Shown here: positions 2,419 through 47,058 of the stretch, in pieces
How the letters are laid out: every line of letters begins with the position of its first letter
Position numbering within the stretch: position 1 is the first letter of the stretch
IMG/VR virus record: IMGVR_UViG_3300033486_000003
Coordinates: 1 to 51,424 of that record
DNA from: a virus
Taxonomy: Duplodnaviria; Caudoviricetes
Strand: one strand, 5' to 3'
Length of the DNA: 51,424 bases
Position numbers and translations under genes: made by a program
Notes under the pieces: generated by a model
Told to the model about the DNA's origin: nothing
What the model saw: the letters and a program-made list of their open reading frames with translations, nothing else
Databases searched by the model: none

Positions 2419-2691
2419 TTAGGTATGCGCAGTTTCGGCCATTGCGTTTATACCGCCCACCCATGAATTGAACGCCTCCGCTCCTGGAACAACTGGAGAT
2501 TTATTCACACATGGGTCATACAGCGGGCAGCCGCCGCATGGATCTATTTTTGGGGTATTGCCCTTTCCTTCCCAGCGAGGACGGCATATTGATAAAACTT
2601 TCTCACTCCGTTCTATCAGGGAATGCCTAACAACAGGGTCAACGCGACCCGCTTCAGCGGTGGTGGTGTTTGGTGTTGTGGCTTCGCTCAT
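2419..2691 (-). CDS. Cassette-like hypothetical protein; N-terminus encoded within an attC site
   Basis: ATG and GGAG lie in the loop of the attC at 2625-2745; stop falls in CCTAAC. Confidence 0.65.
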   Translation of the reverse strand: MSEATTPNTTTAEAGRVDPVVRHSLIERSEKVLSICRPRWEGKGNTPKIDPCGGCPLYDPCVNKSPVVPGAEAFNSWVGGINAMAETAHT

Positions 2692-2745
2692 CTCATTTAT
2701 CTCCGTGGCTCTGTTGTCGCGGTCGCATTACCCTGGCCGTTATAT
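2625..2745 (+). mobile_element. attC-like integron recombination site A
   Basis: GCCTAAC-AACAG-GGTCAACGCGACCCGC...GCGGTCGCATTACC-CTGGCC-GTTATAT: paired arms with extrahelical bases. Confidence 0.8.
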
Positions 2746-2937
2746 TGCTTCTTCCTCATACCAGAACTCCCAGTCCGGATGGACTTCCTTTTGTCTTTTT
2801 ACCCAGCTTTCTGCGCCAATTTTCGGAACCAAATCACCGCGTCCAGATTGAAGAGGTGTTCGATAGTGCAATCTAACAAGGCCGCTCAACTCGGACTGGC
2901 CGCCAGCGGCGCTGTTCTGGTTCTGTTGTTCACTCAT
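2740..2937 (-). CDS. Cassette-like hypothetical protein
   Basis: Stop lies in the end of attC A; N-terminus (GGQSELSGLVR) is encoded by an attC half-site. Confidence 0.6.
   Translation of the reverse strand: MSEQQNQNSAAGGQSELSGLVRLHYRTPLQSGRGDLVPKIGAESWVKRQKEVHPDWEFWYEEEAI
2871..2905 (+). mobile_element. Truncated attC half-site
   Basis: ATCTAAC-AAGGCC-GCTCAACTCGGAC; no partner arm found. Confidence 0.5.
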
Positions 2938-3182
2938 CTACTCTGTCTCCTGTTGTGCAGCTCCATCATCACTTTTTTGAGCGCCTCGACCGCTGCCACG
3001 CCCCTCTTTTTCTGCCTCTCCGCCAATTCGGCCCGGCGCTCTTCCAGCGGCATTGATAGCAAATGCCTTGCCTCACACTCAATCATCCACTCTGGGCAGC
3101 TGCTGCACACCGTAGAGCCGTCGCGCAGCGTGACCATAGGCGTCGCCTCATCCTCGCAGCGCTGGCAGCCTAGGCAGGCCAT
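2934..3182 (-). CDS. Hypothetical Cys-rich (possible Zn-binding) protein
   Basis: CxxCxxC and CxxC motifs; AGGAG RBS. Confidence 0.7.
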   Translation of the reverse strand: MACLGCQRCEDEATPMVTLRDGSTVCSSCPEWMIECEARHLLSMPLEERRAELAERQKKRGVAAVEALKKVMMELHNRRQSR

Positions 3183-3190
3183 TACTCCTC

Positions 3191-3412
3191 CTACTCGTTG
3201 CTACCAGTTCCGTCAGAATCGGTAGATGATTGGTTTTTGTCCACGAACTCACGAGCGGCCTTGATCTTTGCCCGCACCCAGGCCGCGCCACCTAGGCGCT
3301 TGCACTTCTCCCACTCATCGTCCGTCATCCTTACCGGGCGAGACTTCATCAGTTCGCCAGTCTTAGATAGGGGCTTACGGCCTTGGCCTCGACATGCGCC
3401 GCCGCGCTTCAT
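3191..3412 (-). CDS. Small DNA-binding protein (RGG..GRKP, ribbon-helix-helix-like)
   Basis: RGGACRGQGRKP...VRMTDDEWEKCKRLGGAAWVR. Confidence 0.65.
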   Translation of the reverse strand: MKRGGACRGQGRKPLSKTGELMKSRPVRMTDDEWEKCKRLGGAAWVRAKIKAAREFVDKNQSSTDSDGTGSNE

Positions 3413-3651
3413 TCTCCGCGCCTCAGCATAGACATCGCAATCGAAAGTTGATGCCGGGCCGAAGAGTCGACCGAATATCCGGCCTCTGCAAGCAATGAAT
3501 CGACGCTGTTCAGTACAGGCAAGGCATCTCGCGCATTGTCGGCCAACAGAATCAGCGCACGTGCTGTTTGCGAGTTGTACCCGCCGTCCCGCGTTTCGTC
3601 TGCCACCTCTATCGCGAGGTCAAAGTCCATCCTTTTTTCTCCCACCATCAT
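3409..3651 (-). CDS. Hypothetical protein
   Basis: ATGA-coupled ORF in the operon. Confidence 0.65.
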   Translation of the reverse strand: MMVGEKRMDFDLAIEVADETRDGGYNSQTARALILLADNARDALPVLNSVDSLLAEAGYSVDSSARHQLSIAMSMLRRGE

Positions 3652-3824
3652 TGCAGCACGAAAACCTGATGCCCTTCGCGCGCCAACTTGTTTGCCGTAT
3701 GCTTTGTTGTCTTGGCGTAGGCTTCAAATTTACCGGTCACCTTGTCGAGTACGCCAAAAACGATGCGGTACGGAAAATACTGCTTGAGTCTGCGAAGCTC
3801 CTGCTCTTGTTTGTTGTTGAGCAT
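3648..3824 (-). CDS. Hypothetical protein
   Basis: Start MLNNKQ at 3824 with GGGAG RBS, just below a promoter. Confidence 0.65.
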   Translation of the reverse strand: MLNNKQEQELRRLKQYFPYRIVFGVLDKVTGKFEAYAKTTKHTANKLAREGHQVFVLQ

Positions 3825-3856
3825 TTCGTTCTCCCGTTGTGTTGTTTGATGATTAT

Positions 3857-3885
3857 ATCGTATATGCGTAATCAATAAATGTCAA
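3857..3885 (-). promoter_or_regulatory. Sigma70-type promoter with overlapping imperfect palindrome
   Basis: TTGACA-17-TACGAT; CGTATATGCG at 3859-3868. Confidence 0.6.
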
Positions 3886-4172
3886 GCGGCAGTAACGCTA
3901 TACCCGCACTTACTGCACTTCAGGCATTCGACGAGTCTACCGGGCCCGCCCGGCGACATTGTGACGACCTCCCAGCCGGGGAAGTCCGGCGTACCGGTGC
4001 AGGTCTGCTCCATTGCCTGCCCTGGCTTCATCTCGCCGCCACAGCGCCGACAGCCATCGCAAGCGTCGCCCGTGTCGGCCCACCTCTTCACCCCGTCGCC
4101 GCCCACTACCCACCACCTCGTAACACCGCGCGCCAAATCCAGTTCAAAGCCGAAGCCGCGTAGAGTGCTCAT
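3882..4172 (-). CDS. Hypothetical Zn-ribbon protein
   Basis: CRRCGG and CLKCSKCG motifs; coupled ORF. Confidence 0.65.
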   Translation of the reverse strand: MSTLRGFGFELDLARGVTRWWVVGGDGVKRWADTGDACDGCRRCGGEMKPGQAMEQTCTGTPDFPGWEVVTMSPGGPGRLVECLKCSKCGYSVTAA

Positions 4173-4354
4173 CTCAATACCCCCCGTGAATCCATCATTT
4201 TGGCCTTCAAAAACCCAATATTTTCAAGCTCTGCCATGGCCCTGTTTCTCCCCCGTATGTCATCCACCGTTTTTAACCTCACAGGCCTTTTCTTTGCGCC
4301 CCTAATCTCATCCATTCGCCGCTCTCGCCAGCGCATGACATGCTCATCCATCAT
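4169..4354 (-). CDS. Hypothetical protein
   Basis: ATGA overlap with the helicase stop. Confidence 0.55.
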   Translation of the reverse strand: MMDEHVMRWRERRMDEIRGAKKRPVRLKTVDDIRGRNRAMAELENIGFLKAKMMDSRGVLR

Positions 4355-6915
4355 GCTGATTTTCTCGACTTGGCATTACGAATATCGCGGCTCTTGATGT
4401 AGGATATTGTCTCGGGGCTTGGGGGGAGAGGCGGTACACCAGAATGGGCGTTGGGCCACACGCTAAAATATTCGCGATACAGGTGCTTTGCTCTGCCTTC
4501 TTGCTGGCCCTTGCTTGCCACATACCCCAGCAGCTCACCGTAGAACCGGCGCTTATCTTCCGCTGGTGTGGCCCGGTTGCGCCTTTCTGCAGCGCTGGCT
4601 TTTGTCGTATCCACCTGCTCTAGCTTGGCTTCGTGGTACTCCAGAGCCTCGCCCTTAGCCTTTCGCTGATGGCCGCAGAATGGGCAAGCATGAGCAGCTT
4701 TGTAGACGCGGGCGCAGTTTGAGCATTGAACATCTATCGGTTCCTTCTTCTCCTGCTTTGACCTCTCAATTCGCTCCTGAACGGTGGTTTTTTCGTCCAG
4801 GCTCCAGTCATTGATAAATTCTACCGGCCCCATGCGAGGATCAAGGCTCATTCCACCGTGATCAATAACATTCGACCATTGCTGATCCTCGTAGGGGCGG
4901 AGAACTCGCCCAACCCCCTGCATCCAGCGACTGATTGATCGTGTGGCGGTAGCAAATGAAACGGTTTGCAGGCGGGGAATGTCGCTTCCGAGAGAAATGA
5001 TACCAACGTTCGCGACCACCAATATTCTACCGCTGGCCAATCCGTCGAATATCATGAATCGCTCTTCGTCGGGGGTGTTGGCGTCCATGTAGGCGGACGG
5101 AATGCCCTTACTGCTGAACTTTTCCACAACATCCATGGCATTGGCTCTGGTGGCGGTGAACACCACCGTGCTGGTGCCGGGAGCAATTCTCAGCCAGTTA
5201 TCGACCACGCACCCCATGATTTTTCCGTCATAAGCGGCCCCAAGCTGTTTGCTGTTGTAGTCGTCCCCCATCATTTTCACGCCCGATAGGTCTGGCCGTT
5301 CTGCGGAGTAGTAGCGAGGCTGAAGCAGTGCCCCTGCCTCAATCAACTCTGGCATCGTCACCGGGATTACAAGGCGGTCGCTGATATTGCCAAGCCCTCC
5401 ACCGCCGGTTACGCAGGGCGTAGCGGTCAGTAGCATGACGATCTTTCGCGGGCCATACGCACCTTCTCGCAGCGCGTTGATGAGCTTGGCGCGCTCAGGG
5501 CTGGCATAGGTGTGGCCTTCATCAAATATCACCACGTCAGCGGCATAGAGCGACACCGTGCCGTTGGAGGTGGGATTGTCCAGCCGGGCCATGATGGTGT
5601 CGACCGACGCGATTTCGACCTTATGCCACGGCTCAAACGGGACCCCGGCCATGATCATCCCCGAGTCTATGCCCAGCTCTCGGAAGGATTTGCATGTCTG
5701 TTCCACGAGATTTCGGCGCGGCGCAATAAACAGCAGGCGCTTTCCATTGGAGACCGTGGAAGCGGCGATGGAAGCGGAAATACGGGTATTGTGAGTTACG
5801 GTAAAGTCACCGAGCAGGAATAGATTGTCACCATCTATCTCGAATCCATAATAATCGCCGTCACCAACCTCAGATACATCTATCCCATGGACTAAATCAC
5901 TCTTTTTTTGCTTTCGTTCTCCTGTTTTTTTTACTCTGCATGGGATCTTGTTTGTGTTGCCACTGATGCTAACCCTGTAATAAGTCCCCTCGAAGCCTAT
6001 AGACTTAATCTTTTTTCTGCATTCGGTTATGTAAGCAGAAAGACCAACGGACCTGCATAAGAAAGCGACGGCATCTGATATGTGCTTTCTCTTTTGGATA
6101 AAATCATATCCTGTTTTGCTGATGCTGCCATCCGTATCTATCAATCCAGCAAGTAATTCTAGCCTATCCTCATAGGATGCGGTCTTGTATGTATCCGGGA
6201 CGTGCTTATTCCCAATGAGATTAAGCTCTCTTAATGCCGCCATACACTCATTATTACCTCTAGAGCTAAGCCTCCACGTCGGGCATCTTTTTTTATCAGA
6301 TACGCTCGAATAGCACTTATTATCAGCTCCCCATTTGTTCCATGCGTCTACAACTGCGCCGGGATATTTTGTGAGTGATGACTCTCTTTCTGTTCCATCA
6401 CCGAGCCATATACCAAGAACATATGGCGGAATCTTTAAATCACCAGCAGGTTTAAAATCTATACGCTCAGGACGCCACCCCTTCAGCAAATGCTTGGCCG
6501 TTTTACTGCCATTTAAATACGTCCTGATGTCCACATTTACAATATCACCCGAAGCGAAATGCCCGTCTCCAAGACTGCATCTTCCTGAGAAATTCGTGGA
6601 CTTAAGCGAAAGAATATGCGACGCATTGACGATGTACGGATCGCCCTTGTTCGGTGTAATTTTATAAAGCATCTCACGCCCTGTGGTCGTCGATAGGACG
6701 TTCCTCGGCGAGCTGTCTGGCCCCATCAAGACATCGCCGACAATGATGTCTTGGACCGCTTTAATTGACCCATCAAACATAAGAACCGGCGTATCTTTAC
6801 CAAGACATTTTCCCGCACCCGTCGGGGCCACCATGCACGGGGCACGAAAACCTTCACGGATGGCCTGCCGGAGCTGGTCGATAGCTCGCTGTTGGTAGTC
6901 GCGAAGAGGGATCAT
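4351..6915 (-). CDS. SF2 (DEAD/DEAH-like) helicase with C-terminal Zn finger, interrupted by an intein
   Basis: LRDYQ, APTGAGK|T, IFDEGH, TATP, QGVGRVLR, CxxC...CPFC. Confidence 0.9.
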   Translation of the reverse strand: MIPLRDYQQRAIDQLRQAIREGFRAPCMVAPTGAGKCLGKDTPVLMFDGSIKAVQDIIVGDVLMGPDSSPRNVLSTTTGREMLYKITPNKGDPYIVNASHILSLKSTNFSGRCSLGDGHFASGDIVNVDIRTYLNGSKTAKHLLKGWRPERIDFKPAGDLKIPPYVLGIWLGDGTERESSLTKYPGAVVDAWNKWGADNKCYSSVSDKKRCPTWRLSSRGNNECMAALRELNLIGNKHVPDTYKTASYEDRLELLAGLIDTDGSISKTGYDFIQKRKHISDAVAFLCRSVGLSAYITECRKKIKSIGFEGTYYRVSISGNTNKIPCRVKKTGERKQKKSDLVHGIDVSEVGDGDYYGFEIDGDNLFLLGDFTVTHNTRISASIAASTVSNGKRLLFIAPRRNLVEQTCKSFRELGIDSGMIMAGVPFEPWHKVEIASVDTIMARLDNPTSNGTVSLYAADVVIFDEGHTYASPERAKLINALREGAYGPRKIVMLLTATPCVTGGGGLGNISDRLVIPVTMPELIEAGALLQPRYYSAERPDLSGVKMMGDDYNSKQLGAAYDGKIMGCVVDNWLRIAPGTSTVVFTATRANAMDVVEKFSSKGIPSAYMDANTPDEERFMIFDGLASGRILVVANVGIISLGSDIPRLQTVSFATATRSISRWMQGVGRVLRPYEDQQWSNVIDHGGMSLDPRMGPVEFINDWSLDEKTTVQERIERSKQEKKEPIDVQCSNCARVYKAAHACPFCGHQRKAKGEALEYHEAKLEQVDTTKASAAERRNRATPAEDKRRFYGELLGYVASKGQQEGRAKHLYREYFSVWPNAHSGVPPLPPSPETISYIKSRDIRNAKSRKSA
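5788..6807 (-). mobile_element. Intein (340 aa) with LAGLIDADG homing endonuclease, inserted in Walker A
   Basis: Starts CLGKDTPVLM, ends FTVTHN followed by Thr; blocks LGIWLGDG and LLAGLIDTDGS. Confidence 0.93.
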
Positions 6916-7296
6916 AATCACAGGCTCCTAATCATAAGTTTTTGTTTATGGTTCGCTAGAAAATCATAATCAATAGCCTATCGAATCTCCGGGGCAATAC
7001 TTCCTCTTGAGCCTTTGGGTGATTGGTATCAATCAGGCTCTTTTCCTTCTCGCTATTGATGATTTTCGCAAAAATCACCGCTGTTTCCGTTTGTGCATTT
7101 GTTCGGAACGCTATTCCCGGTATATGGCAGGAGCGTCACCCTGGATCGTGAATCACCACTAACCCGATTTTAACCTCGCCGTGCTGGTTACGGTCTGGTT
7201 GCCCCGGCTCACAAGGGCTGCACAAACTGGATGTTCCCGTGGATTACTCGCCACCGTTGGTCTACCCGTCCGAGTGCGATGATTGCTTATGATGTA

Positions 7297-7325
7297 TTGA
7301 CGAACCATAAACGATTGTTTATGAT
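7297..7325 (+). promoter_or_regulatory. Sigma70-type promoter with internal inverted repeat
   Basis: TTGACG-17-TATGAT; CATAAAC-GATT-GTTTATG. Confidence 0.65.
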
Positions 7326-7331
7326 GTGCTC

Positions 7332-7406
7332 GTCAGTGTAATCACTACCCGTGCAATCACTGCAAACCACGATAGGGCGGCTCCCCGATGATTCGTGGTT
7401 TTTTTT
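7332..7406 (+). ncRNA. Candidate small antisense RNA
   Basis: Own promoter upstream, CAGTG/CACTG hairpin, then AAACCACGA...TCGTGGTTT terminator with T-tract; opposite strand to the ssb-helicase transcript. Confidence 0.5.
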
Positions 7407-7479
7407 GCCTGTCCCACCGAGACTCCCCAATGAGATGGCTGGTAAATACTACACCCAAACTTTCGAGTTTGCCATTGAG

Positions 7480-7923
7480 CTAAAAAGGGATGTCGTCATC
7501 GAAGTCATCGAATCCACCACCCCCAGACTGCGGCACAGGCTCTCTGCGTGATGATCCGGCATCTGACTGGCCACTGGCATTACCAGCGCCCTTGCCGCCC
7601 AGCATCTGCATCTGATCGGCTACAATCTCGGTGGTGTACTTGTCCTGGCCCTGCTGATCCTGCCACTTGCGGGTCTGGAGCTTGCCTTCGATGTAGACTT
7701 GGGAACCCTTGCCACAATATTGCCCCAATATATCAGCCAGCTTTCCAAAGGCAACAATATTGACCCACTCGGTACGCTCGACCTTATTTCCGCCCTTGTC
7801 CTTATAGTCATCACCGCAGGCAATCGAGAAATTAGCCACGGCCTTTCCGTCTGGCAAATACCGAAGCTCAATATCTTTTCCAATTCTTCCGATTCCCATC
7901 CACTTATTTAGGTCTTTACTCAT
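7480..7923 (-). CDS. ssb: Single-stranded DNA-binding protein
   Basis: OB-fold motifs (ERTEW, GSQVYIEGKLQTRKWQD) and DFDDDIPF tail. Confidence 0.97.
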   Translation of the reverse strand: MSKDLNKWMGIGRIGKDIELRYLPDGKAVANFSIACGDDYKDKGGNKVERTEWVNIVAFGKLADILGQYCGKGSQVYIEGKLQTRKWQDQQGQDKYTTEIVADQMQMLGGKGAGNASGQSDAGSSRREPVPQSGGGGFDDFDDDIPF

Positions 7924-8020
7924 GTTTTTTCCTTGTTTTTAAGTCCATCAAATACGCCACCACGAACAGCATCACGTCACACAGAGCGATGATGCAGATT
8001 ACCAAGATTTCGTTGAGCAT
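7916..8020 (-). CDS. Small membrane peptide (34 aa)
   Basis: MLNEILVICIIALCDVMLFVVAYLMDLKTRKKHE; AGGAGG RBS. Confidence 0.5.
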   Translation of the reverse strand: MLNEILVICIIALCDVMLFVVAYLMDLKTRKKHE

Positions 8021-8183
8021 TTCCCCTCCTGTTCAATCAAGCGCCCGCGCACTGAGTAGGCGCGGGTTGGCTTTTCTGATCCATTCCAATACTCGACTCG
8101 TTTCGACACGACGTATAATTATTTCGGGTTAGAAAACGCTAATTCTGCCTATTTCTACTAGTAGGAATTCTGTCTAATACATG

Positions 8184-8414
8184 TTAGAACTCAATCTGTT
8201 CGTTCATCATTCGAGCCGGAGTATGCTTTCCTTCAACGGTTTCTGCCAGAACGATCTTGCCGCCTTCGCAGCGGTAAATTTCCTTCGTAACCTTATCTGG
8301 GGCAGGCTGACCATTTCCGTAAACAAAGCCGCATGGATATTGGCGAACAACTTCCAGTTCACCGGCTTTGTTCAGCGACGCGCTCACAACCTTGTGTGGT
8401 TTAAAAATATGCAT
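8184..8414 (-). CDS. Cassette-like hypothetical protein
   Basis: GGAGG RBS just after attC B; stop in TTCTAAC. Confidence 0.7.
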   Translation of the reverse strand: MHIFKPHKVVSASLNKAGELEVVRQYPCGFVYGNGQPAPDKVTKEIYRCEGGKIVLAETVEGKHTPARMMNEQIEF

Positions 8415-8436
8415 TTATTGCCTCCGTTTGGCTTGG

Positions 8437-8522
8437 TTCTAACATCACCTTAAACCGGACGCGGGTTAGCATCCAGTCTCTTTTCTGTTTCCGTGGCCGC
8501 GCCGGTTAAGGCGGCGTTGGGC
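8437..8522 (+). mobile_element. attC-like site B
   Basis: TTCTAAC-ATCAC-CTTAAACCGGACGCGG...CCGCGCCGGTTAAG-GCGGC-GTTGGGC. Confidence 0.8.
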
Positions 8523-8752
8523 GTCAGCATTTTCAGCCAGTCCCGGTAGTCGTCACAACTATCAAGCCCGTGCGGGGAATCAGAACCAATGTTTCTGCAA
8601 TAAGCCATTTTCAACATCATTTGCAGACGCTCAATCTCGGCTGCTGCGCGCAGGCCAAGAAGCAAGCAACACTTGTCCTCGTCATCAAGCCCTGGATCAT
8701 CCTGGCTCGGCCAGTGACTCCGTAATTCAGCACAAATATCCATCGTTCTCAC
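8450..8752 (-). CDS. Cassette-like hypothetical protein reading into attC B
   Basis: C-terminus PNAALTGAATE...PRPV is encoded by the attC. Confidence 0.65.
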   Translation of the reverse strand: MRTMDICAELRSHWPSQDDPGLDDEDKCCLLLGLRAAAEIERLQMMLKMAYCRNIGSDSPHGLDSCDDYRDWLKMLTPNAALTGAATETEKRLDANPRPV

Positions 8753-8763
8753 TCCGTAGTTGC

Positions 8764-8845
8764 GCCCAACAAGTCATCAAACCGGACGCGGTTGTAGCAG
8801 CGCACTTATTTAGTTCGTGGCGCGCCGGTTAATTCTGCGTTAGGC
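8764..8845 (+). mobile_element. attC-like site C
   Basis: GCCCAAC-AAGTC-ATCAAACCGGACGCG...CGCGCCGGTTAAT-TCTGC-GTTAGGC. Confidence 0.8.
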
Positions 8846-9094
8846 GCTAGGGCACCATTGGTCTATTTCACACGTCGGGCAATCTCGACTATGTGAGCCT
8901 CGCTGACCGCAATCAATGCACTCATCCTCAAAGAATACATCGACACCGCCGTTATCAAATATCCCAGCAAAGCACCCTGCGAGTAGATTTCGATTGTCTT
9001 CACGATGGTCGTCATCTGGCAACCCATCAATCGTTACACTCGTTGGGTGGATGCCAGCACTTATATCGCCAGGAATAAATATTGTCGCCTTCAT
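8840..9094 (-). CDS. Cassette-like hypothetical protein (C-terminal Cys motifs)
   Basis: Start MKATIF with GGGAG RBS after attC D; stop lies in attC C. Confidence 0.7.
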   Translation of the reverse strand: MKATIFIPGDISAGIHPTSVTIDGLPDDDHREDNRNLLAGCFAGIFDNGGVDVFFEDECIDCGQRGSHSRDCPTCEIDQWCPSA

Positions 9095-9108
9095 ATTCGA
9101 TCTCCCGC

Positions 9109-9193
9109 GCCTAACCACGCCAGTCAGTTGACGGCGTGGAAGCGGCGTTTTGTTTATCGTTCGGTGGGCCGCAACTACTGGCTACCGTTAGGG
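9109..9193 (+). mobile_element. attC-like site D
   Basis: GCCTAAC..GCCAGT(C)AGTTG(A)CGGC...GCCGCAACTACTGGC..GTTAGGG with the classic two extrahelical bases. Confidence 0.82.
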
Positions 9194-9430
9194 ATCAATC
9201 CCCATTTTTTCGCTTACCGATGAACATTTGGCTCCCGGGGCTCCTCCAAGGGCAGACGCAAGAGCCGTGCATTCATTTCCGAGAAGGAGTTTTGCCGAGA
9301 ATCCATCTCTCCAAACTTGCGCCGCAATTGCAACGGATTCTCCTTTTTTGTTTGCCTCAATAACCGCATCAAACATCGGTTTGAGTTGTTCGGCTTGTTC
9401 TTTCGTAAGCTCTACGTGTATCAGTTTCAT
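9188..9430 (-). CDS. Cassette-like hypothetical protein
   Basis: Single ORF filling the gap between attC E and attC D. Confidence 0.7.
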   Translation of the reverse strand: MKLIHVELTKEQAEQLKPMFDAVIEANKKGESVAIAAQVWRDGFSAKLLLGNECTALASALGGAPGAKCSSVSEKMGIDP

Positions 9431-9441
9431 ATCAGCACCAT

Positions 9442-9525
9442 CCCTAACAATTAAATCCAGGCGAGTCGGTTGCAGACGCGCCTCTCTTTACGTTCGTGGC
9501 TCCCGCCTGATTAACATCGTTATTT
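9442..9525 (+). mobile_element. attC-like site E
   Basis: CCCTAAC-AATTA-AATCCAGGCG...CGCCTGATTAACATC-GTTATTT. Confidence 0.7.
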
Positions 9526-9726
9526 GTCGTCCATCTCGAAATATTTAGCCAGCATCTCAAGGGTCGAGGCCCGTGGGCGCAACGTATCCCCGTTTTCGAT
9601 CCGTCGGAGTGCTCCGTCAGAGATTTCGGTATCGAGCGCGATGGCCGGGATTGATCGGGTATTGTGGGCTTTCTTGAGCGCAGACCTAACTTTGGCGTGA
9701 AGGCGCTTGTATTTTTTTTCGGTCAT
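9520..9726 (-). CDS. Cro/XRE-type helix-turn-helix regulator
   Basis: IPAIALDTEISDGALRRIENGDTLRPRASTLEMLAKYF. Confidence 0.8.
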   Translation of the reverse strand: MTEKKYKRLHAKVRSALKKAHNTRSIPAIALDTEISDGALRRIENGDTLRPRASTLEMLAKYFEMDDK

Positions 9727-9893
9727 TTTGCTTCATTCTCCAGAATTTCGGCGGCAGTCTCGCAGTCATCGGCTATGCAGTAGCCGTCGCAATCCGAATC
9801 GTCATAATGCACCATCTCGTCCGGACAGAAATCTCTAATATATTCCGCAGCTATACGCAGCATTTTCTGCGCCCGCTCAATTTTATCTTTCAT
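9723..9893 (-). CDS. Hypothetical acidic protein (56 aa)
   Basis: Manual translation MKDKIERAQK...ENEAK; GAGG RBS; ATGA overlap with the HTH gene. Confidence 0.6.
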   Translation of the reverse strand: MKDKIERAQKMLRIAAEYIRDFCPDEMVHYDDSDCDGYCIADDCETAAEILENEAK

Positions 9894-9925
9894 TAGTGCC
9901 TCGATATTTTGATGTGTTCCTGCTT

Positions 9926-10005
9926 AGGATAAGCTCGATAAAATACAAAATCAATACAAGATTACGAAAAGATTTTATTGACATTGCGAATTTTAAGGCC
10001 ATAAT
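9926..10005. promoter_or_regulatory. Divergent early promoters
   Basis: Rightward TTGACA-16-CATAAT (9978-10005); leftward TTGATT-17-TATCCT; AT-rich strand-switch region. Confidence 0.6.
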
Positions 10006-10012
10006 AACCAAC

Positions 10013-10121
10013 GTAACGAGCGCCGAGACGAATACCCCGATGAACGTGCATCGGAGAGTTCCCGCGATACGCGAAGGATTCACGAACCCCGTATTTATAG
10101 GGATGTTTCGGCGCTTGTTAC
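10013..10121 (+). ncRNA. Structured 5' leader RNA upstream of csrA
   Basis: 17-bp closing stem 10013-10029/10105-10121 enclosing further hairpins. Confidence 0.5.
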
Positions 10122-10146
10122 CCCCCACAAATCTAAGGAGAGAACC

Positions 10147-19015: not shown

Positions 19016-19822
19016 ATGTTAGGAAATGTTCTGATAACTGGCGGCTCTGGGTTCTTCGGAAGAGCCATGACCAAGCACCTGCTTGAGAACGACCTGGCAG
19101 ACAAGGTGTGCATATTCAGCCGCGACGAATATAAGCAATCGGTAATGAGAAGAGAATTCCGAGACGATCAGCGGCTTAGATTCTTCATCGGCGACGTTCG
19201 CAACCCAGAGCGAGTAAAGCGGGCGATGCGCGGGATTGATACAGTGATCCATGCCGCCGCCCTAAAGCGCATAGAAACCGCCCATTACAACCCCGAAGAG
19301 CTGGTTGAAACCAATATCAACGGAACCATCAACGTGGTCCATGCCGCCGAATCCATAGGGGCGATCTGTGTTTTCCTCTCCACAGATAAGGCTTGCGAGC
19401 CGAAAAGCGATTACGGATACAGCAAGGCCCTGGCTGAGACAATAGCGCTTGGAGCCGGAGCGGTAGTTACTAGATACGGAAACGTGGCCGGTTCGACAGG
19501 TAGCGTTATACCTCTGTGGCGGTCGATGCGGGCAATAGTCCCCGTAACCGATCCTGAATGTACCCGCTTCTTCATGACAGAACAGCAGGCCGTTGACCTT
19601 GTGATCAAGGCCGCCACTGACAAAAATACAACCGATGTCATAACCCCCGTATTGCCCGCTTACAGACTGGCCGACCTTGCTGAAGCCATGGGCAAGTTCA
19701 TGGAGGTGAAAGGTCTACCCTACTGGGAAAAGAAACACGAGAGTATGCGCCCCGGCGAGACAAGCGAACAGGCAAGGCGCATGAGCGTTGAAGAGCTGAG
19801 AGAGGCGCTGAAGTATGTTTAA
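19016..19822 (+). CDS. pseB: UDP-GlcNAc 4,6-dehydratase (PseB/FlaA1-like)
   Basis: ITGGSGFFG, SRDEYKQ, HAAALK, STDKA, YGYSK, RYGNVAGSTGSVIP. Confidence 0.88.
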   Translation: MLGNVLITGGSGFFGRAMTKHLLENDLADKVCIFSRDEYKQSVMRREFRDDQRLRFFIGDVRNPERVKRAMRGIDTVIHAAALKRIETAHYNPEELVETNINGTINVVHAAESIGAICVFLSTDKACEPKSDYGYSKALAETIALGAGAVVTRYGNVAGSTGSVIPLWRSMRAIVPVTDPECTRFFMTEQQAVDLVIKAATDKNTTDVITPVLPAYRLADLAEAMGKFMEVKGLPYWEKKHESMRPGETSEQARRMSVEELREALKYV

Positions 19823-20441
19823 CCCCCACCAAGTAACACGAGACTTTGAGGAGGCTATTTGCTCTTACACTGGAGCGCCTTATGCAGTGGCGGTAAACAG
19901 CTGTACCATGGCGTTGCTGTTAGCGATTAAGTGGCATGTAAAAGACCTTCATTACACTCCATGCGTAAAAATACCAAAACATACCTATGTATCAGTTCCG
20001 CAATCTATTTTCCATGCGGGAGGAAAAGTTAAATTTATTGATCATGAATGGGAAGCCGCTTATAGACTCAATCCGTTTCCAGTGTGGGATTCTGCGAGAT
20101 GGTTCACGTCAAATATGTACAATGCATTGACATGGGGTGGCGGTATTGGAATGGTCTGCGTCTCATTCCACGCAAGCAAAACACTTGGCATCGAGCAAGG
20201 CGGCGCAATACTCCACAACGACCCAGAGGCTGACAAGTGGTTTCGTAAAGCGCGATTCGATGGTAGAACTGAAGGCGTCGAACCAAAAGACGACACCTTC
20301 GACATGATTGGCTACCACTGTTATCTAAACCCATCAATAGCGGCGCAGGGGCTTTTGAAGTTGGCATCCTTGCCGAGGCATAACGCACCGCTACCGAATA
20401 GCGACTATCCGGACCTTTCAAAAATGGAAATCTTCAAATGA
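19815..20441 (+). CDS. pseC: DegT-family PLP sugar aminotransferase (PseC-like, short)
   Basis: AVAVNSCT.AL, DSA, SFHASK (PLP Lys), GGAI; only 208 aa. Confidence 0.75.
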   Translation: MFNPHQVTRDFEEAICSYTGAPYAVAVNSCTMALLLAIKWHVKDLHYTPCVKIPKHTYVSVPQSIFHAGGKVKFIDHEWEAAYRLNPFPVWDSARWFTSNMYNALTWGGGIGMVCVSFHASKTLGIEQGGAILHNDPEADKWFRKARFDGRTEGVEPKDDTFDMIGYHCYLNPSIAAQGLLKLASLPRHNAPLPNSDYPDLSKMEIFK

Positions 20442-20752
20442 ATGTAGAAATGATCATCGACAAACGCGAGGGGATGGTGATTCAGCGGTTCAAGCACCCC
20501 GTCGAAGAGGTGGTTTATGAGCCACAGAACGCCATCGACGTGGCCCGCGCTATTACTGACGCCGCCTTTGAGGCCCGAGACGGCATGAAGCCCGTTGGCG
20601 ACACCCTGAAAGCCGAGCTAGTGGAACGCCACAGATTCACGCTGACCAATCGACTGGCATTGATGCTTGGGACTCTGCGCCGCGACAACAAGAAGACAGA
20701 CGGACAGGTGGCGCAGGCGATGGTAGAAGCTTGCTTAAAAGAGATTTTCTGA
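20438..20752 (+). CDS. Hypothetical protein inside the sugar operon
   Basis: Translationally coupled on both sides. Confidence 0.7.
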   Translation: MNVEMIIDKREGMVIQRFKHPVEEVVYEPQNAIDVARAITDAAFEARDGMKPVGDTLKAELVERHRFTLTNRLALMLGTLRRDNKKTDGQVAQAMVEACLKEIF

Positions 20753-21336
20753 TGACCTGCATAGCCATTATTCCAGCGCGTGGGGGCAGCCGTAGAATTC
20801 CCAAGAAGAACATCCGCATGTTTCACGGCAAGCCGATCATCGCTTATTCGATTGAGGCGGCTAGAAAGTCGGGGGTATTCGATAAGATTGTGGTCTCCAC
20901 TGACTGCCCCGATATTGCAGAAGTCGCTATTCAATACGGGGCGGATGAGATTCACTATCGTGACGAATCCAGTTCAAGAGATGAAGTCGGAACTCAAGAA
21001 GTGGCGAGAGTCGTTCTGGCTGATTATCCGGACTTTGATTATGCGTGTGTGATTTATCCTTGTGCGCCGATGCTCTCGCCCGACACCCTTAAAAGGGCCA
21101 AGTTAGTATTTGATAATTTTGGATATACTGAATATGTCGTTCCGGTTGGAAATTGGCTACAAGACCCTGGGCAATTCTATTTTGGAAAAGCGCTTTCATT
21201 CTTCGAAGAACTACCGCTTCTTGGGCCGTACACCAGACTACTTCCAATAGACCCAAAAACAGACTGCGACATAAACACCATGGAAGATTGGGAACGAGCA
21301 GAACGCATGTACACCGAACTGAAGGAAAAATCATGA
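20752..21336 (+). CDS. pseF: CMP-nonulosonic acid synthetase (PseF/NeuA-like)
   Basis: IAIIPARGGSRRIPKKNI..FHGKPIIAYSI...VSTD...D.GQFY...DINTMEDW. Confidence 0.88.
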   Translation: MTCIAIIPARGGSRRIPKKNIRMFHGKPIIAYSIEAARKSGVFDKIVVSTDCPDIAEVAIQYGADEIHYRDESSSRDEVGTQEVARVVLADYPDFDYACVIYPCAPMLSPDTLKRAKLVFDNFGYTEYVVPVGNWLQDPGQFYFGKALSFFEELPLLGPYTRLLPIDPKTDCDINTMEDWERAERMYTELKEKS

Positions 21337-21902
21337 GCAAAGAGTGGTGGGCAGGGGACTTTGGAAACTCCTACACGAAGAGGAACCGGGTTGATTGGCA
21401 ACTGCGCTCCTTATTTTGGAATCACGTTATTTGCACAACGGGGGTGCGCAGTGCGTATGAGATAGGATGTAATTGCGGCTGGAACCTATCTGCCATCAAA
21501 CTAAGAACACCCTATGTTTGCGTTTCCGGCGAGGACGTAAACGAATCGGCCTTGGATCAAGCGTATGCCGCTGGCCTTGAAGTTTATCACGCCAACGCTG
21601 GCCATCACGCAACGGCAGAACTGGTGTTCACTGCCGGAGTGTTGATCCATATTCCGCCAGAAGAATTGAAAGAGATGATGCTGCGAATCATAGACATGAG
21701 CTGTGATTACGTTCTTGCCGTGGAGTACGCCGCCGACAAAGAGGAAGAAGTCGAGTATCGCGGCCACGCCGGGAAGCTGTGGCGTAGGCCGTTTGGGAAG
21801 CTGTACCAGGAGATGGGGCTGGAACTGATCGAAGAAGGCAAGGTCGGGGCCAACCAAGGCTTTGACGATTGCACCTATTGGTTGTTGAGGAAGCCAGCAT
21901 GA
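21333..21902 (+). CDS. Pseudaminic acid biosynthesis-associated methyltransferase
   Basis: W.GDFGNSY..RN, EIGCNCGWNL, LVFTAGVLIHI, EVEYRGHAGKLWRRPF. Confidence 0.8.
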   Translation: MSKEWWAGDFGNSYTKRNRVDWQLRSLFWNHVICTTGVRSAYEIGCNCGWNLSAIKLRTPYVCVSGEDVNESALDQAYAAGLEVYHANAGHHATAELVFTAGVLIHIPPEELKEMMLRIIDMSCDYVLAVEYAADKEEEVEYRGHAGKLWRRPFGKLYQEMGLELIEEGKVGANQGFDDCTYWLLRKPA

Positions 21903-22936
21903 TTCGCTGCAAAACCTGCTGTATGCCTGCTACTCGCCCTGACACCCCCTTCGTTGATGGAGAGTGTCAGGCGTGCATAAACTACCGGAACCGGAAGAAT
22001 ATCGACTGGGATGGCAGAAAGAAAGAGCTTGAAGCGCTGCTTGATCGGCACGATCGGCGGGTAATTGTACCGAGTTCGGGCGGGAAGGATTCTCATTTTC
22101 AAGTGCTGAAATTACTAGAGTACGGCTGTGATGTAACTATCGTTACAGCTCGCACCTGCCACTTAACCCCTATCGGTCGGCAGAACATCGACAACCTGGC
22201 GCGGTATGCCAGAACCATCGAGATAGTTCCAAATATGACGGTCCGGGCCAAGCTCAACCGGCTGGGGCTGGAGATGGTAGGAGACATAAGCTGGCCTGAA
22301 CACGCTTCAATATTCACCACTCCACTACGCGTGGCCGCCGATCTTGGCATCTCCTTGGTGATGTATGGCGAATGCCCGCAACAGGAATACGGCGGCCCCC
22401 AGGGCAGCGAAGAAGCCAAGCAAATGACCCGCCGATGGGTTACAGAGTTTGGCGGATTCCTTGGCTTGAGGCCATCCGATTTTGTCGGTATCGAAGGTAT
22501 AACCGCTAGAGACATGGCCGACTACGAGCTACCGAAAGGGCTTGAGGATAAGGGCATAGAGGCGCATTTCCTTGGGCAATACCTGCCGTGGGATAGCCAT
22601 CACAATGCTGAGGTGGCAAAGGCGCACGGGATGAGAACGCTTCCCTTACCTCCCGCGCCGTCTAATTGGTGGTTTGCCGAGAACTTAGATAATGCCCAAT
22701 GTGGTTTGCACGACTACTTCGGCTATCTGAAATATGGGTATGGCCGTGGGTGCGCACAGATCAGCATTGATGTTCGTGCTGGCCGCATCTCAAGAGGTGC
22801 CGCGATGAACTGGGTTACTCACAATGACGGCAAATATCCAGCAGTTTACGCGGGAGTTAGGGACGAGTACATATTGAGCCGGATAGGGCTGGATCAGTGG
22901 CGTATTGATGAATTGATAGAGAAGTTCAAGTGTTAG
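21899..22936 (+). CDS. N-acetyl sugar amidotransferase (WbuX/PseA-like)
   Basis: CKTC.MP.TRP...CQAC, PP-loop SGGKDS, HDYFGYLKYGYGR. Confidence 0.88.
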   Translation: MIRCKTCCMPATRPDTPFVDGECQACINYRNRKNIDWDGRKKELEALLDRHDRRVIVPSSGGKDSHFQVLKLLEYGCDVTIVTARTCHLTPIGRQNIDNLARYARTIEIVPNMTVRAKLNRLGLEMVGDISWPEHASIFTTPLRVAADLGISLVMYGECPQQEYGGPQGSEEAKQMTRRWVTEFGGFLGLRPSDFVGIEGITARDMADYELPKGLEDKGIEAHFLGQYLPWDSHHNAEVAKAHGMRTLPLPPAPSNWWFAENLDNAQCGLHDYFGYLKYGYGRGCAQISIDVRAGRISRGAAMNWVTHNDGKYPAVYAGVRDEYILSRIGLDQWRIDELIEKFKC

Positions 22937-23673
22937 CAATCCGCGTAATCCCCCAGCTCCTATGCCGTGGCCGCCAGCTGATCAAGGGCGAACGGTTTGA
23001 CTCGTGGCGCTCTGTTGGTGTGGCCGCACAGGCTGTTAGGGTCCACCAGATGCGCGGCGTTGATGAGTTGATGCTACTGGATATATCCGCCACCCCTGAA
23101 GGCCGCAGCCCCAATCTGGAGCTGGTTAAGGAACTGTCTGAATCGTTCTTCATGCCGCTGGCGGTAGGTGGTGGAGTATGCAGTTTGGCCCATGTTCGTG
23201 AACTACTCCGCCATGGTGCCGATAAGGTCGTGATCGGAACCTATGCCATCGAACACCCAGTAAAGTTCGCAGAGCTGGCCGAGGCGTTCGGGAATTCCAC
23301 CTTCGTCGTCTCGATAGATGTTCGTGACGGGCATGTGGTGACGAGGTGCGGGACCAACGAGTTGACCGGGTTAACCCCTGTCGAGTGCGCCAAGATTGTG
23401 GAAGAAGCCGGTGCCGGTGAGATAGTCATCAACAGCATCAACCGAGAAGGAACCATGCAGGGCTACGATCTCGACCTGATTAACTCTGTTAGCAATGCTG
23501 TCAGCGTCCCGGTGGTGGCCGCTGGTGGCTGCAAAGACTACGAGGATATGTACCACGCCATCCAAGCCGGTGCCAACGCCGTGGCGGCTGGTGCGCTGTT
23601 TCAGTTTACCGACTCCACTCCAAGAGGGGCGGTTAAATATCTGCATGAGAAGGGGGTCAATGTAAGGCTATGA
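22930..23673 (+). CDS. HisF-like cyclase subunit (WbuZ-type amidotransferase partner)
   Basis: RVIPQLL, DELMLLDI, MPLAVGGG, GADKV, GAGEI..NSINREGTMQGYD. Confidence 0.85.
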   Translation: MLAIRVIPQLLCRGRQLIKGERFDSWRSVGVAAQAVRVHQMRGVDELMLLDISATPEGRSPNLELVKELSESFFMPLAVGGGVCSLAHVRELLRHGADKVVIGTYAIEHPVKFAELAEAFGNSTFVVSIDVRDGHVVTRCGTNELTGLTPVECAKIVEEAGAGEIVINSINREGTMQGYDLDLINSVSNAVSVPVVAAGGCKDYEDMYHAIQAGANAVAAGALFQFTDSTPRGAVKYLHEKGVNVRL

Positions 23674-24068
23674 GATTGGTAGACGCCTACTGTGTTGATG
23701 ATCCGTGGATTTTATTCGAGCTGTTACAGCAGCGCACGCCTCAGCAGTCTATTTCCCACAAGGAAATGCCGACCTACAAGCAACATTGCGACTTCTTCTA
23801 CTCAAAGCCGTACGCTCACTGGTATTTGATCAAGAAAGACGGGGAATACATAGGCGGAATTTATCTTACAGGAATTAGAGAAATAGGGATTTCTATAATT
23901 CAGAAACACCAGGGCAACGGATATGGAAAGGTCGCCGTTAAATTGCTGCTGGAGCTTCACCCTGGCCGCGCCCTGTGGAACGTCAATCCTGAAAACGAGA
24001 GATCAATAGCCATGGCAAAATCGCTTGGCGGAAAACTGATCCAATACACCTTCGAGATACCAGCATGA
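23670..24068 (+). CDS. GNAT acetyltransferase (PseH-like)
   Basis: EIGISI...HQGNGYGK acetyl-CoA motif, N..S. Confidence 0.75.
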   Translation: MRLVDAYCVDDPWILFELLQQRTPQQSISHKEMPTYKQHCDFFYSKPYAHWYLIKKDGEYIGGIYLTGIREIGISIIQKHQGNGYGKVAVKLLLELHPGRALWNVNPENERSIAMAKSLGGKLIQYTFEIPA

Positions 24069-25021
24069 AAACACCTTTCATCATTGCTGAAATGTCGGCT
24101 AACCATCTTGGTGATTTTGAGCTGGCCAAGGCAATCATCGAGGAAGCCGCTAAAGCCGGTGCCGACGCCATCAAGCTCCAGACCTTTACCCCGGAGCAGA
24201 TGGTTGGCCCGCTCGATTATGTCGTGAAGACCGGACCATGGGCGGGCCATAAGCTGATTGACCTGTACCGGCAAGCACACACCTCACGCGAATGGCATAA
24301 GCCACTGTTCGACTGCGCCGCCAAGCTTGGAATCGAAGCATTCTCGACGCCGTTTCACCCTGATGACGTGGCCTTTTTGGAGACTCTAAACTGCCCGAGA
24401 TATAAGATTTCCAGCTTTGAGATTACCGATCTGGAGCTGATCAGGGCTGCGGCAGAGACGGGGAAGCCACTGATCATATCGACTGGAATGGCAACTACTA
24501 ATGAAATACTAATTGCTCAAGATTTAGTAGTTGAGATTAGTGGCGTGGTTCCGACATTCTTGAAATGTACCAGCGCATATCCAGCCGATGCTTCATCCGC
24601 GAATCTATCCGCCATGGGTGATGACTGGTTATTCGCCGGGGTATCAGATCACACCATAGGAATCGGTGTGGCTGTCGCGGCTACCGCACTTGGGGCGAAG
24701 GTGATCGAAAAGCACCTTTGCCTCAATAGATCATACGGTGGACTTGATGCCGGGTTTTCTATGGAGCCGCACGAGTTCAAACAGATGGTAATTGAATGTC
24801 GCCGAGCCGCTGCCGCCGTAAGCGGAAAAGGCGATAAAGCGGAAGAAATGACCGAGATGCGTCGCTCACTTTGGTTTGCAGAAGATTTGCCAGCCGGTAC
24901 ACAGATCGAGCGCCGCCACCTGAAAGTTGCACGACCAGCAGGCGGAAGGAACCCAGGCGATCTATCTTTGGTTGTCGGGCTGACCTTGAAACATGACGTA
25001 AAAGCCGGAGACCCCGTCTAA
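24065..25021 (+). CDS. pseI: Pseudaminic acid synthase (PseI/NeuB family, with SAF domain)
   Basis: IIAEMSANHLG, GADAIKLQT, KISSFEITD, STGMA, KCTSAYP, SDHT, IEKH. Confidence 0.9.
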   Translation: MKTPFIIAEMSANHLGDFELAKAIIEEAAKAGADAIKLQTFTPEQMVGPLDYVVKTGPWAGHKLIDLYRQAHTSREWHKPLFDCAAKLGIEAFSTPFHPDDVAFLETLNCPRYKISSFEITDLELIRAAAETGKPLIISTGMATTNEILIAQDLVVEISGVVPTFLKCTSAYPADASSANLSAMGDDWLFAGVSDHTIGIGVAVAATALGAKVIEKHLCLNRSYGGLDAGFSMEPHEFKQMVIECRRAAAAVSGKGDKAEEMTEMRRSLWFAEDLPAGTQIERRHLKVARPAGGRNPGDLSLVVGLTLKHDVKAGDPV

Positions 25022-43874: not shown

Positions 43875-43951
43875 GCGCCTGTAGCTTAACTGGATAGAGC
43901 ACCGGAATTCTACTCCGGTGGTTGGTGGTTCGAAGCCATCCGGGCGCACCA
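43875..43951 (+). tRNA. tRNA-Arg(TCT)
   Basis: Cloverleaf: acceptor GCGCCTG/CGGGCGC, anticodon stem CCGGA/TCCGG with loop ATTCTAC, TTCGAAG T-loop, encoded CCA. Confidence 0.9.
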
Positions 43952-46825: not shown

Positions 46826-47058
46826 CCGAGTGTCTCGTTTTGAGTAAGGATGGTCGATGCTCTACCTTTTCTAGCCATCTGAGCAGCGATTGATTTTCGC
46901 TTTGCAAGTTTTGATGCGGCATCATTTAACATCGGCATCTCAAGAGGTTTTTCTGGAACGACCGCCGTAGACGGATTTTCTTTTCCGATTCCCATTACAG
47001 AACCAACAACCGTTTCCCCGAAAACACCGCTAACAACTTTTCCAAGATCATCGCTCAT
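46822..47058 (-). CDS. Small pre-portal protein
   Basis: Ends GRASTILT..ETLG, typical of this position. Confidence 0.7.
   Translation of the reverse strand: MSDDLGKVVSGVFGETVVGSVMGIGKENPSTAVVPEKPLEMPMLNDAASKLAKRKSIAAQMARKGRASTILTQNETLG

Follow-up and report, generated by a model that had tools for sequence, protein, structure and literature searches.

Integrons are regarded as bacterial devices, and recent work has placed anti-phage defence genes in their cassettes. Where at least two attC sites lie close together with no integrase gene (intI) nearby, the locus is referred to as a CALIN (cluster of attC sites lacking integron-integrases). Reverse-oriented cassettes exist in chromosomal integrons, for example those that carry toxin-antitoxin genes. 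Repeated hairpins are also known from T4-type phages, where promoter-stem-loop (PeSL) cassettes separate the small early genes of a hyperplastic region. Here, we describe attC sites in the genome of a phage. The IMG/VR virus record IMGVR_UViG_3300033486_000003 was analysed over its entire 51,424 nt (the window); at positions 8184-9519, four small open reading frames (ORFs) alternate with four attC-type elements. This segment is probably a true array of the CALIN type, made up of four cassettes and driven by the integron integrase (IntI); the phage is uncultivated, podovirus-like, and integrase-less, and the array lies in its early region.

Phage CALINs have been described. According to the main text of Qi et al. 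2023 (PMC9892861), a screen of 10,705 NCBI phage genomes, with at least two sites required within 3 kb, yielded 17 phage CALINs, and IntI1 recombined five of the six attC sites of virulent phages that were tested. Thus, the central idea of an earlier note on this DNA, that the phage borrows host IntI to shuffle accessory genes, was already in print. By anatomy and model score, the window array is a real phage CALIN of the published kind, with flipped polarity as a variant. It shares with the CALINs of that main text an integrase-less cluster of attC sites, small or accessory genes, and bacterial IntI as the proposed route. Unlike them, it belongs to an uncultivated IMG/VR podovirus-like phage with no isolate DNA match, and its ORFs run antisense to attC. 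The same main text describes two virulent phages whose cassettes share one orientation, the usual state of bacterial arrays. Nowhere does it use the words “opposite,” “antisense,” or “reverse” (the supplements lie outside this scope), and no statement that phage cassettes run antisense to attC was found there or in full-text literature searches.

Bacterial sedentary chromosomal integrons and CALINs are the other obvious comparison. The phage locus resembles these (Cury et al. 2016, PMC4889954) in its attC family, in the anatomy of boxes, bulges and spacers, and in the complementarity of boxes belonging to the same cassette. Bacterial arrays lie upstream of intI and carry their ORFs on the attC top strand, whereas the phage array has neither intI nor attI and carries its ORFs on the bottom strand.

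What do the phage elements look like? Those of array 1, referred to as e1 to e4, lie at 8437-8522, 8764-8845, 9109-9193, and 9442-9525, exactly where the earlier note had placed four attC-like sites alternating with single small ORFs. A fifth, e5, is found at 2625-2745 (121 nt). Read along the + strand, an element has an RYYYAAC-type box and a spacer of ~5 nt; a stem and loop follow, and after the 3' arm come 5-6 nt of spacer and a GTT box of the GTTRRRY type. Two single-base bulges are found on the 5' arm. Bulges and spacing are intact in five sites, and the loops of e1-e5 have a motif in common. The full anatomy of attC is present, with R'' and R' boxes, L'' and L' arms, bulges on one arm, spacers, and a loop, and all five sites score on one strand. 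The layout is that of a CALIN, with four attC sites within 1.1 kb, a fifth 5.7 kb off, and no tyrosine recombinase in the genome. It is not that of a complete integron: there is no intI, and nothing att-like is matched at the left end of the array, where G|TT stands bare.

The elements were scored with covariance models that were trained on bacterial attC sites only and run on the whole window, on both strands, with filters off. The seed was the arm motif of e1 and e2, which was found in 81 bacterial genome stretches representing 80 distinct sequences. Model R1 was built from the 66 of these 80 sequences that have AAC and GTT boxes and are not cut by a locus end. R1 gives 232 matches at E ≤ 0.01, spread over 77 bacterial loci and in many cases forming same-strand arrays, and a broader model, R2, was built from 133 R1 matches at E ≤ 1e-7 in 75 loci. 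The bacterial sites found in this way are associated with integrases. An IntI above the TIGR02249 curated cut-off is encoded in 5/5 tested genomes with these sites versus 0/14 control genomes, and in 5/5 intI loci the R2 matches are upstream of intI, on the strand that does not encode it. The attC family to which the models assign e1-e5 is widespread in environmental bacterial integrons.

In the window, R2 scores e1 (R'' TTCTAAC, R' GTTGGGC) at 64.5 bits (E 5.6e-17; 18.7 bits on the minus strand) and e2 (GCCCAAC...GTTAGGC) at 55.2 bits (E 4.2e-14; 11.6 bits on the minus strand), scores that are partly circular because the training sites of both models were reached via the e1/e2 motif. Element e3 (GCCTAAC...GTTAGGG) scores 30.9 bits (E 1.2e-6) on the + strand alone; e4 (CCCTAAC...GTTATTT) scores 20.5 bits (E 0.0018), the TTATTT past G9519 being phage backbone; and e5 (GCCTAAC...GTTATAT; model match 2623-2747) scores 31.4 bits (E 8e-7). 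All five are on the + strand, and the other R2 matches at E < 1 are weaker reverse-strand images of e1 and e2. The earlier note had expected at least four covariance-model matches, and the five obtained are the sole significant ones in 51 kb. As a negative control, IMG/VR loci around relatives of the phage helicase-primase (80 loci, ≤48% identity, too distant for comparisons of presence and absence) were scanned; 0/80 loci, covering ~1 Mb, gave a match at E ≤ 1. Independent support for the predicted identity of the sites is provided by the boxes, the spacing, and e3-e5.

Where does one cassette end and the next begin? The R' box at the start of each cassette is complementary to the R'' box of the same cassette over 8, 8, 9, and 9 nt; complementarity between the two boxes of one site extends over only 3, 3, 6, and 4 nt. 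Such pairing is rare elsewhere, with 10 of the 2,493 GTT/AAC pairs that lie 200-400 nt apart in the window reaching 8 nt, four of which are the cassettes of array 1. The complementarity within cassettes indicates units cut at G|TT, and hence four cassettes of 323-348 nt on the + strand, each comprising a reversed ORF and its site: cassette 1 (8184-8516, 333 nt; c1m and e1), cassette 2 (8517-8839, 323 nt; c2m and e2), cassette 3 (8840-9187, 348 nt; c3m and e3), and cassette 4 (9188-9519, 332 nt; c4m and e4). Judged by its paired boxes, each cassette bears the inverted-repeat signature of a former circular unit.

The edges of the array fall at 8183/8184 and 9519/9520. To the left, the array stops at a bare G|TTAGAAC; within the junction box GTTAGAA (8183-8189, +), G8183 is backbone, TTAGAA opens cassette 1, and 8 nt are complementary to the R'' box of e1. 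An attI-like or attC site to the left of 8183 was considered and rejected, since there is no model match and no complementary arms are visible by eye. The right end is G|TTATTTG. It abuts a backbone gene (9520-9726, minus strand) for a 68-aa putative Cro/C1-type helix-turn-helix protein (Pfam HTH_31, 20.6 bits against a cut-off of 27), and the TAA stop codon of this gene is the complement of the TTA at the junction. A junction at the stop codon of the backbone gene has the geometry expected for insertion at a secondary site of the GWT/attG type. IntI is described as inserting cassettes at such genomic GWT (attG) sites in experiments on E. coli chromosomes (Loot et al., bioRxiv 10.1101/2022.09.11.507474). 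As in that system, array 1 ends with plain G|TT in non-att DNA, which fits a GWT site cut once; unlike in that work, the target here is a phage genome, and the event is reconstructed from sequence. Insertion of attC sites alone between existing phage genes was rejected because the R' remainder is not adjacent to R''.

The array is unusual in its polarity. No cassette ORF in the window has the canonical layout, in which the ORF lies on the attC top strand and is followed by the attC site. The earlier note had implied such an order on the minus strand, a view that has to be given up: the attC top strand is the + strand. Indeed, the minus strand as attC top strand contradicts the model scores, the bulge positions, and the polarity relative to intI, and was also rejected because ORF1 would lose its site and e4 its cassette. 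Coding on the minus strand is indicated by ribosome-binding sites, GC content by codon position, the homologue of c1m, and the protein family of c3m. Codon usage calls all six cassette interiors of the window as minus, c1m weakly (-0.042) and c2m and c4m at -0.127 and -0.206.

Is flipped polarity found beyond this phage? Polarity was calibrated on five intI loci (model polarity away from intI in 5/5) and on bacterial arrays. By longest ORF, 70 of 85 segments in bacterial arrays have the ORF on the attC top strand, 6 have it on the opposite strand, and 9 are ambiguous (29 loci with at least three matches; three gaps outside 150-2,500 nt left out). The longest-ORF heuristic misjudged phage cassettes because their ORFs run into the sites, and codon-usage calls were therefore used. 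The viral sample was collected with a looser arm motif and comprised 47 viral stretches, in which codon usage was taken from the 240 nt upstream of R''. By this measure, the bacterial segments are 55 same, 7 opposite, and 8 ambiguous (n = 70), versus 25 opposite, 11 same, and 7 ambiguous for the viral segments (n = 43; Fisher p 4.7e-9). When the viral loci are clustered into 39 groups, 22 are opposite, 11 same, and 6 ambiguous. A cruder count of the nearest ORF gives 18 opposite, 15 same, and 13 with none for 46 viral seeds, and 6, 57, and 14, respectively, for 77 bacterial seeds. All of these counts sample one attC subfamily with home-made gene calling, and some of the IMG/VR records are perhaps bacterial. 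Within this sample, the flipped layout appears to be general among viral contigs with this attC family. The reversed cassettes of chromosomal integrons are similar in that the ORF is antisense to attC, but they are a minority in the bacterial sample (6/85 or 7/70 segments, depending on the measure), compared with 4/4 in phage array 1 plus cassettes a5 and a6, and 25/36 callable segments of viral contigs. The two settings are connected by one protein: a reversed cassette of viral contig L218 (4010-4510, minus strand) and one of a Chromatiales metagenome-assembled genome, L109 (3524-3964, minus strand), encode proteins that are 54% identical, with no Pfam or PHROG family for either. Canonical polarity is also seen on the viral side. 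For example, the IMG/VR fragment G005 carries one canonical-polarity cassette that is antisense to its phage neighbours, as judged by sequence reading and codon usage; a greedy longest-ORF call put the adjacent ORF on the other strand.

The earlier note had also described a second array at 2.4-2.9 kb, of which one complete site, e5, stands, the remainder being just a half-site, e6. The left junction of this region is GTTAGGT (2418-2424, +), with 6 nt complementary to the R'' box of e5, and cassette a5 (2419-2739, +, 321 nt) consists of the reversed ORF 2419-2691 and e5. Half-site e6 (2871-2909, +) has R'' and the 5' arm only and lies inside the first codons of ORF 2740-2937 (minus strand). It is matched by neither R1 nor R2 and is 94% identical over 36 nt to an element of L184, a metagenome contig discussed below. 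By eye, 9 of 10 positions of the box at 2868-2877 agree with the complement of 2739-2748, where the cassette starts. On the evidence of these boxes and arms, the region 2419-2909 is an additional cassette plus a decayed half-site. ORF 2419-2691 has its start codon, and the ribosome-binding site ahead of it, in the long loop of e5. Indeed, three reversed ORFs (2419-2691, 2740-2937, and one in the reverse complement of L184 at ~1233-1326) start inside an attC loop; they read through the 5' arm and R'' box and have similar N-terminal peptides as a result (RVDPVVR, SELSGLVR, and PVDRVVR).

Relatives of the array show turnover of cassettes. L184 is ~90% identical to window positions 9510-10122 and has the same G|TTATTTGTCG right junction, next to a backbone gene that is 90% identical to the 9520-9726 gene of the window. 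Beyond this junction, its array has a different cassette set, with an e4-like site (84% identical) elsewhere in the array, an e6-like element, and a decayed e2-like remnant that has neither loop nor 3' arm. Five IMG/VR fragments, G001-G005, carry the attC arm motif; being fragments, they have no helicase homologue. G004 encodes a homologue of the phage single-stranded DNA-binding protein (SSB; 54% amino-acid identity) and, ~1 kb off, at least four flipped cassettes with own-box matches of 11, 8, 8, and 9 nt. Over three contigs, 10 of 11 cassettes have own-box complementarity of 8-11 nt, the exception being a5 with 6 nt. G003 and G004 do not differ anywhere along one cassette and its attC site, and then diverge directly after GTT. 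The earlier note had predicted gain and loss of cassettes with breakpoints at G|TT in relatives; L184 and the G003/G004 pair bear this out, whereas a G002/G004 pair and a change that involves no attC, both described below, do not. A further attC-like match is found in contig L169 (1382-1455, +; 21.3 bits, E 0.0017), on the strand opposite to the main array of that contig and adjoining a 30-aa stretch that is 93% identical to window ORF 3191-3412.

Additional information comes from contigs of four sequencing runs of one study (wetland and freshwater). Contig joints at attC boxes connect 2420 to 8183 (X3) and 8188 to 8438 and 9192 to 9444 (X4), with the intervening sequence “not known,” and loose contig ends at attC boxes are found at 8518 (where the sequence differs past GTT), 8439, and 2627. 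These joints and ends fit polymorphism at the level of cassettes, whether by deletion, replacement, or ORF inversion. A coverage gap in X1 at 5938-7522 carries no meaning, and the differences in depth seen between cassettes in X3 are of no evidential use. Between the leftward and rightward gene blocks, 5 letters replace 48 nt at 10049-10098 in contigs of X2, X3, and X4.

Several observations weigh against reading the locus as an IntI-driven CALIN. The ORFs of array 1 are on the attC bottom strand, antisense to attC, which breaks the canonical cassette layout. To the partial circularity of the e1 and e2 scores must be added the weakness of e4, with E 0.63 under R1 and E 0.0018 under R2, model E-values themselves being rough. 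Fold energies are ordinary (z -0.3 to -2.4, with 3 to 75 of 200 shuffles equally stable); hairpin energy alone is not distinctive, so stability was dropped as an attC criterion and the elements were compared with real attC sites instead. Among the cargo genes, c1m has a single homologue (58% identity over 96% of its length), c4m has no homologue besides itself and none in viral contigs, and 7/7 other viral loci encoding relatives of c3m have no attC nearby. Two of the four sequencing runs are perhaps from the source sample. G002 carries 297 nt of the cassette shared by G003 and G004 at 99.7% identity, with the G002/G004 breakpoints 8-9 nt ahead of GTT (before the 3' spacer) and inside the ORF. 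Lastly, contigs of three runs jump ~714 nt (3177 to 3892), with 5-6 letters instead, and lose three small early ORFs (3191-3875); this skip involves no attC, so other recombination routes also reshape the region.

Some of these observations would be expected of a fossil array, in which cassettes entered the lineage once, via IntI or illegitimate recombination, are no longer IntI substrates, and turn over by homologous recombination between attC sequences. Such an array would resemble the PeSL cassettes of T4-type phages, which likewise have repeated hairpins between small early genes; unlike those, the elements of the window match attC models and the G|TT signature, and no promoter was found by the sigma-70-type scan described below. 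The off-site breakpoints of G002 and G004, the decayed e6 and the e2-like remnant of L184, the loop motif common to e1-e5, contig loose ends on both the R'' and the R' sides, and the attC-free change in gene content are all compatible with this account. However, own-box complementarity of 8-11 nt in 10/11 cassettes is not something that homologous recombination would preserve. Such recombination also sits poorly with a G003/G004 split exactly after GTT, with bulged bases and spacing that are intact in five sites, and with the homologous reversed cassette in a bacterial array (L109, for that of L218). We consider a fossil array rather unlikely.

The hairpins could instead serve the phage itself, as RNA structures, terminators, or elements of translation control between early genes, with the likeness to attC being secondary. 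The earlier note had invoked a leftward early promoter driving the cassette genes, for which a promoter scan gives no grounds: 4 sigma-70-type promoters were found versus 4.0 expected, none at the elements, with phage-specific promoters outside that scan. The combined promoter and terminator scan is at chance level and names no attC site. In favour of such a role, every early gene in the array has the hairpins on its sense strand; three ORFs start in a loop and read through the arm; and a view of attC sites as containing weak terminators is cited in the main text of PMC9892861. A role of this kind leaves unexplained why the sites match integron attC models, strand included, why the box pattern is specific to cassettes, and why the same site family adjoins intI in bacteria, and it is quite improbable. 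It is scarcely credible that the array is an assembly chimera, with a bacterial integron fragment fused to a phage contig. It is true that attC repeats break assemblies and that the G003, G004, and L184 contigs end inside arrays. But the right junction is spanned by contigs of other runs (X3, 9147-9775; X4, 9493-10042), with an X1 contig covering 8441-10925, L184 provides an independent case of an array abutting this backbone gene (9520-9726), and phage genes flank both arrays of the window, whose record has terminal repeats. Host IntI action on a CALIN would be the most likely mechanism.

What do the cassettes encode? ORF c1m (8184-8414, minus strand, 76 aa) has GGAGG upstream and a TAA stop codon complementary to the opening 3 nt of its cassette. 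It has no Pfam or PHROG family, its close viral-contig relatives amount to one partial match, and the Atlas gave leads only, with scores of at most 0.90. ORF c2m (8450-8743, minus strand, 97 aa) runs through the CAAC box, such that its last 24 residues come from e1. ORF c3m (8840-9094, minus strand, 84 aa) is the best represented, with a family of 67 library proteins at E ≤ 1e-3, mostly full-length (~60) and about 80-90 aa long, that have the motif GDxSVGI...F.DECPDC...H..CP; this family of phage proteins (~85 aa) is so far undescribed. The structure model of c3m is confident (pLDDT 87.9) but matches nothing in the PDB at E ≤ 0.001 (weaker rows include phage Dmd at E 3.5), and Pfam has no family for the protein. 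ORF c4m (9188-9430, minus strand, 80 aa) is an orphan. No Pfam or PHROG family was found for the cargo proteins as a group. The earlier note had observed that upstream stop codons usually fall in the TAAC; more exactly, in three of the four cassettes the stop codon lies in the complement of the R' box (G|TTA), pairing with the three bases that open the cassette. ORF2 has no such stop and reads 24 codons into e1. From their position in the early region, the four small proteins may be accessories for host takeover or counter-defence.

The window is a complete viral genome, with a completeness rating of 100% and a terminal repeat of 127 nt. A PHROG scan of its 72 ORFs indicates a podovirus-type virion module (portal/adaptor, tail tube proteins, and internal virion proteins), a large terminase (47055-48689), a primase-helicase (4351-6921, minus strand), SSB (7480-7923, minus strand), an exonuclease, a Gam-like protein, and several HNH endonucleases. 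Among isolate phages, no terminase exceeds 41% identity to this one, the nearest phages being Acidovorax AP1 and Bordetella BPP-1. Megablast and blastn searches of the region against isolate phages returned a single 105-nt match outside the array and otherwise none. The earlier note had recognised no tyrosine recombinase, which was confirmed: PHROGs assign an integration/excision or tyrosine recombinase gene to 0/72 ORFs, and six-frame searches of the window with PF00589 and TIGR02249 gave nothing at E ≤ 1, while control genomes were matched. At Rfam gathering thresholds, the window yields a tRNA alone, with the attC elements below threshold; the tRNA gene lies within the structural module (43875-43948, +; 60 bits). 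In a run of genes at 19016-25021 (+), the PHROG matches are weak and point to nucleotide-sugar epimerase, aminotransferase, dehydrogenase, and acetyltransferase; the run may be a sugar- or DNA-modification module.

How might an integrase-less phage use such an array? During infection of hosts that express IntI, the host enzyme would act in trans on the folded bottom strands of the attC sites. By inserting, excising, and exchanging cassettes, it could cause small early accessory genes to turn over among phages and with bacterial arrays. Because transcription of the array is leftward, the sense (non-template) strand would be the recombinogenic bottom strand, the reverse of the bacterial arrangement. 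A bolder proposal, which is possible and for now doubtful, is that phages keep their own pool of flipped cassettes, consisting of early genes with attC sites of inverted polarity that insert at the G|TTA of phage stop codons. Leftward transcription, and probably replication, would expose the bottom strand, and host IntI would serve both as the shuffling engine of accessory or counter-defence genes and as a two-way gate to bacterial integrons.

What are the implications for phage biology? The present case joins the CALINs already known from phages and is a clean one: the genome is complete, five sites are backed by models, the junctions fall exactly at G|TT, and a close relative shows turnover. 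Should the flipped pattern survive a general attC model and careful gene calling, the cassettes of phages would form a class of their own and not be strays from bacteria. The pattern would then give a practical way into the question of how cassettes arise and become flipped, and it would make possible a direct test of whether IntI reshapes phage genomes during infection.

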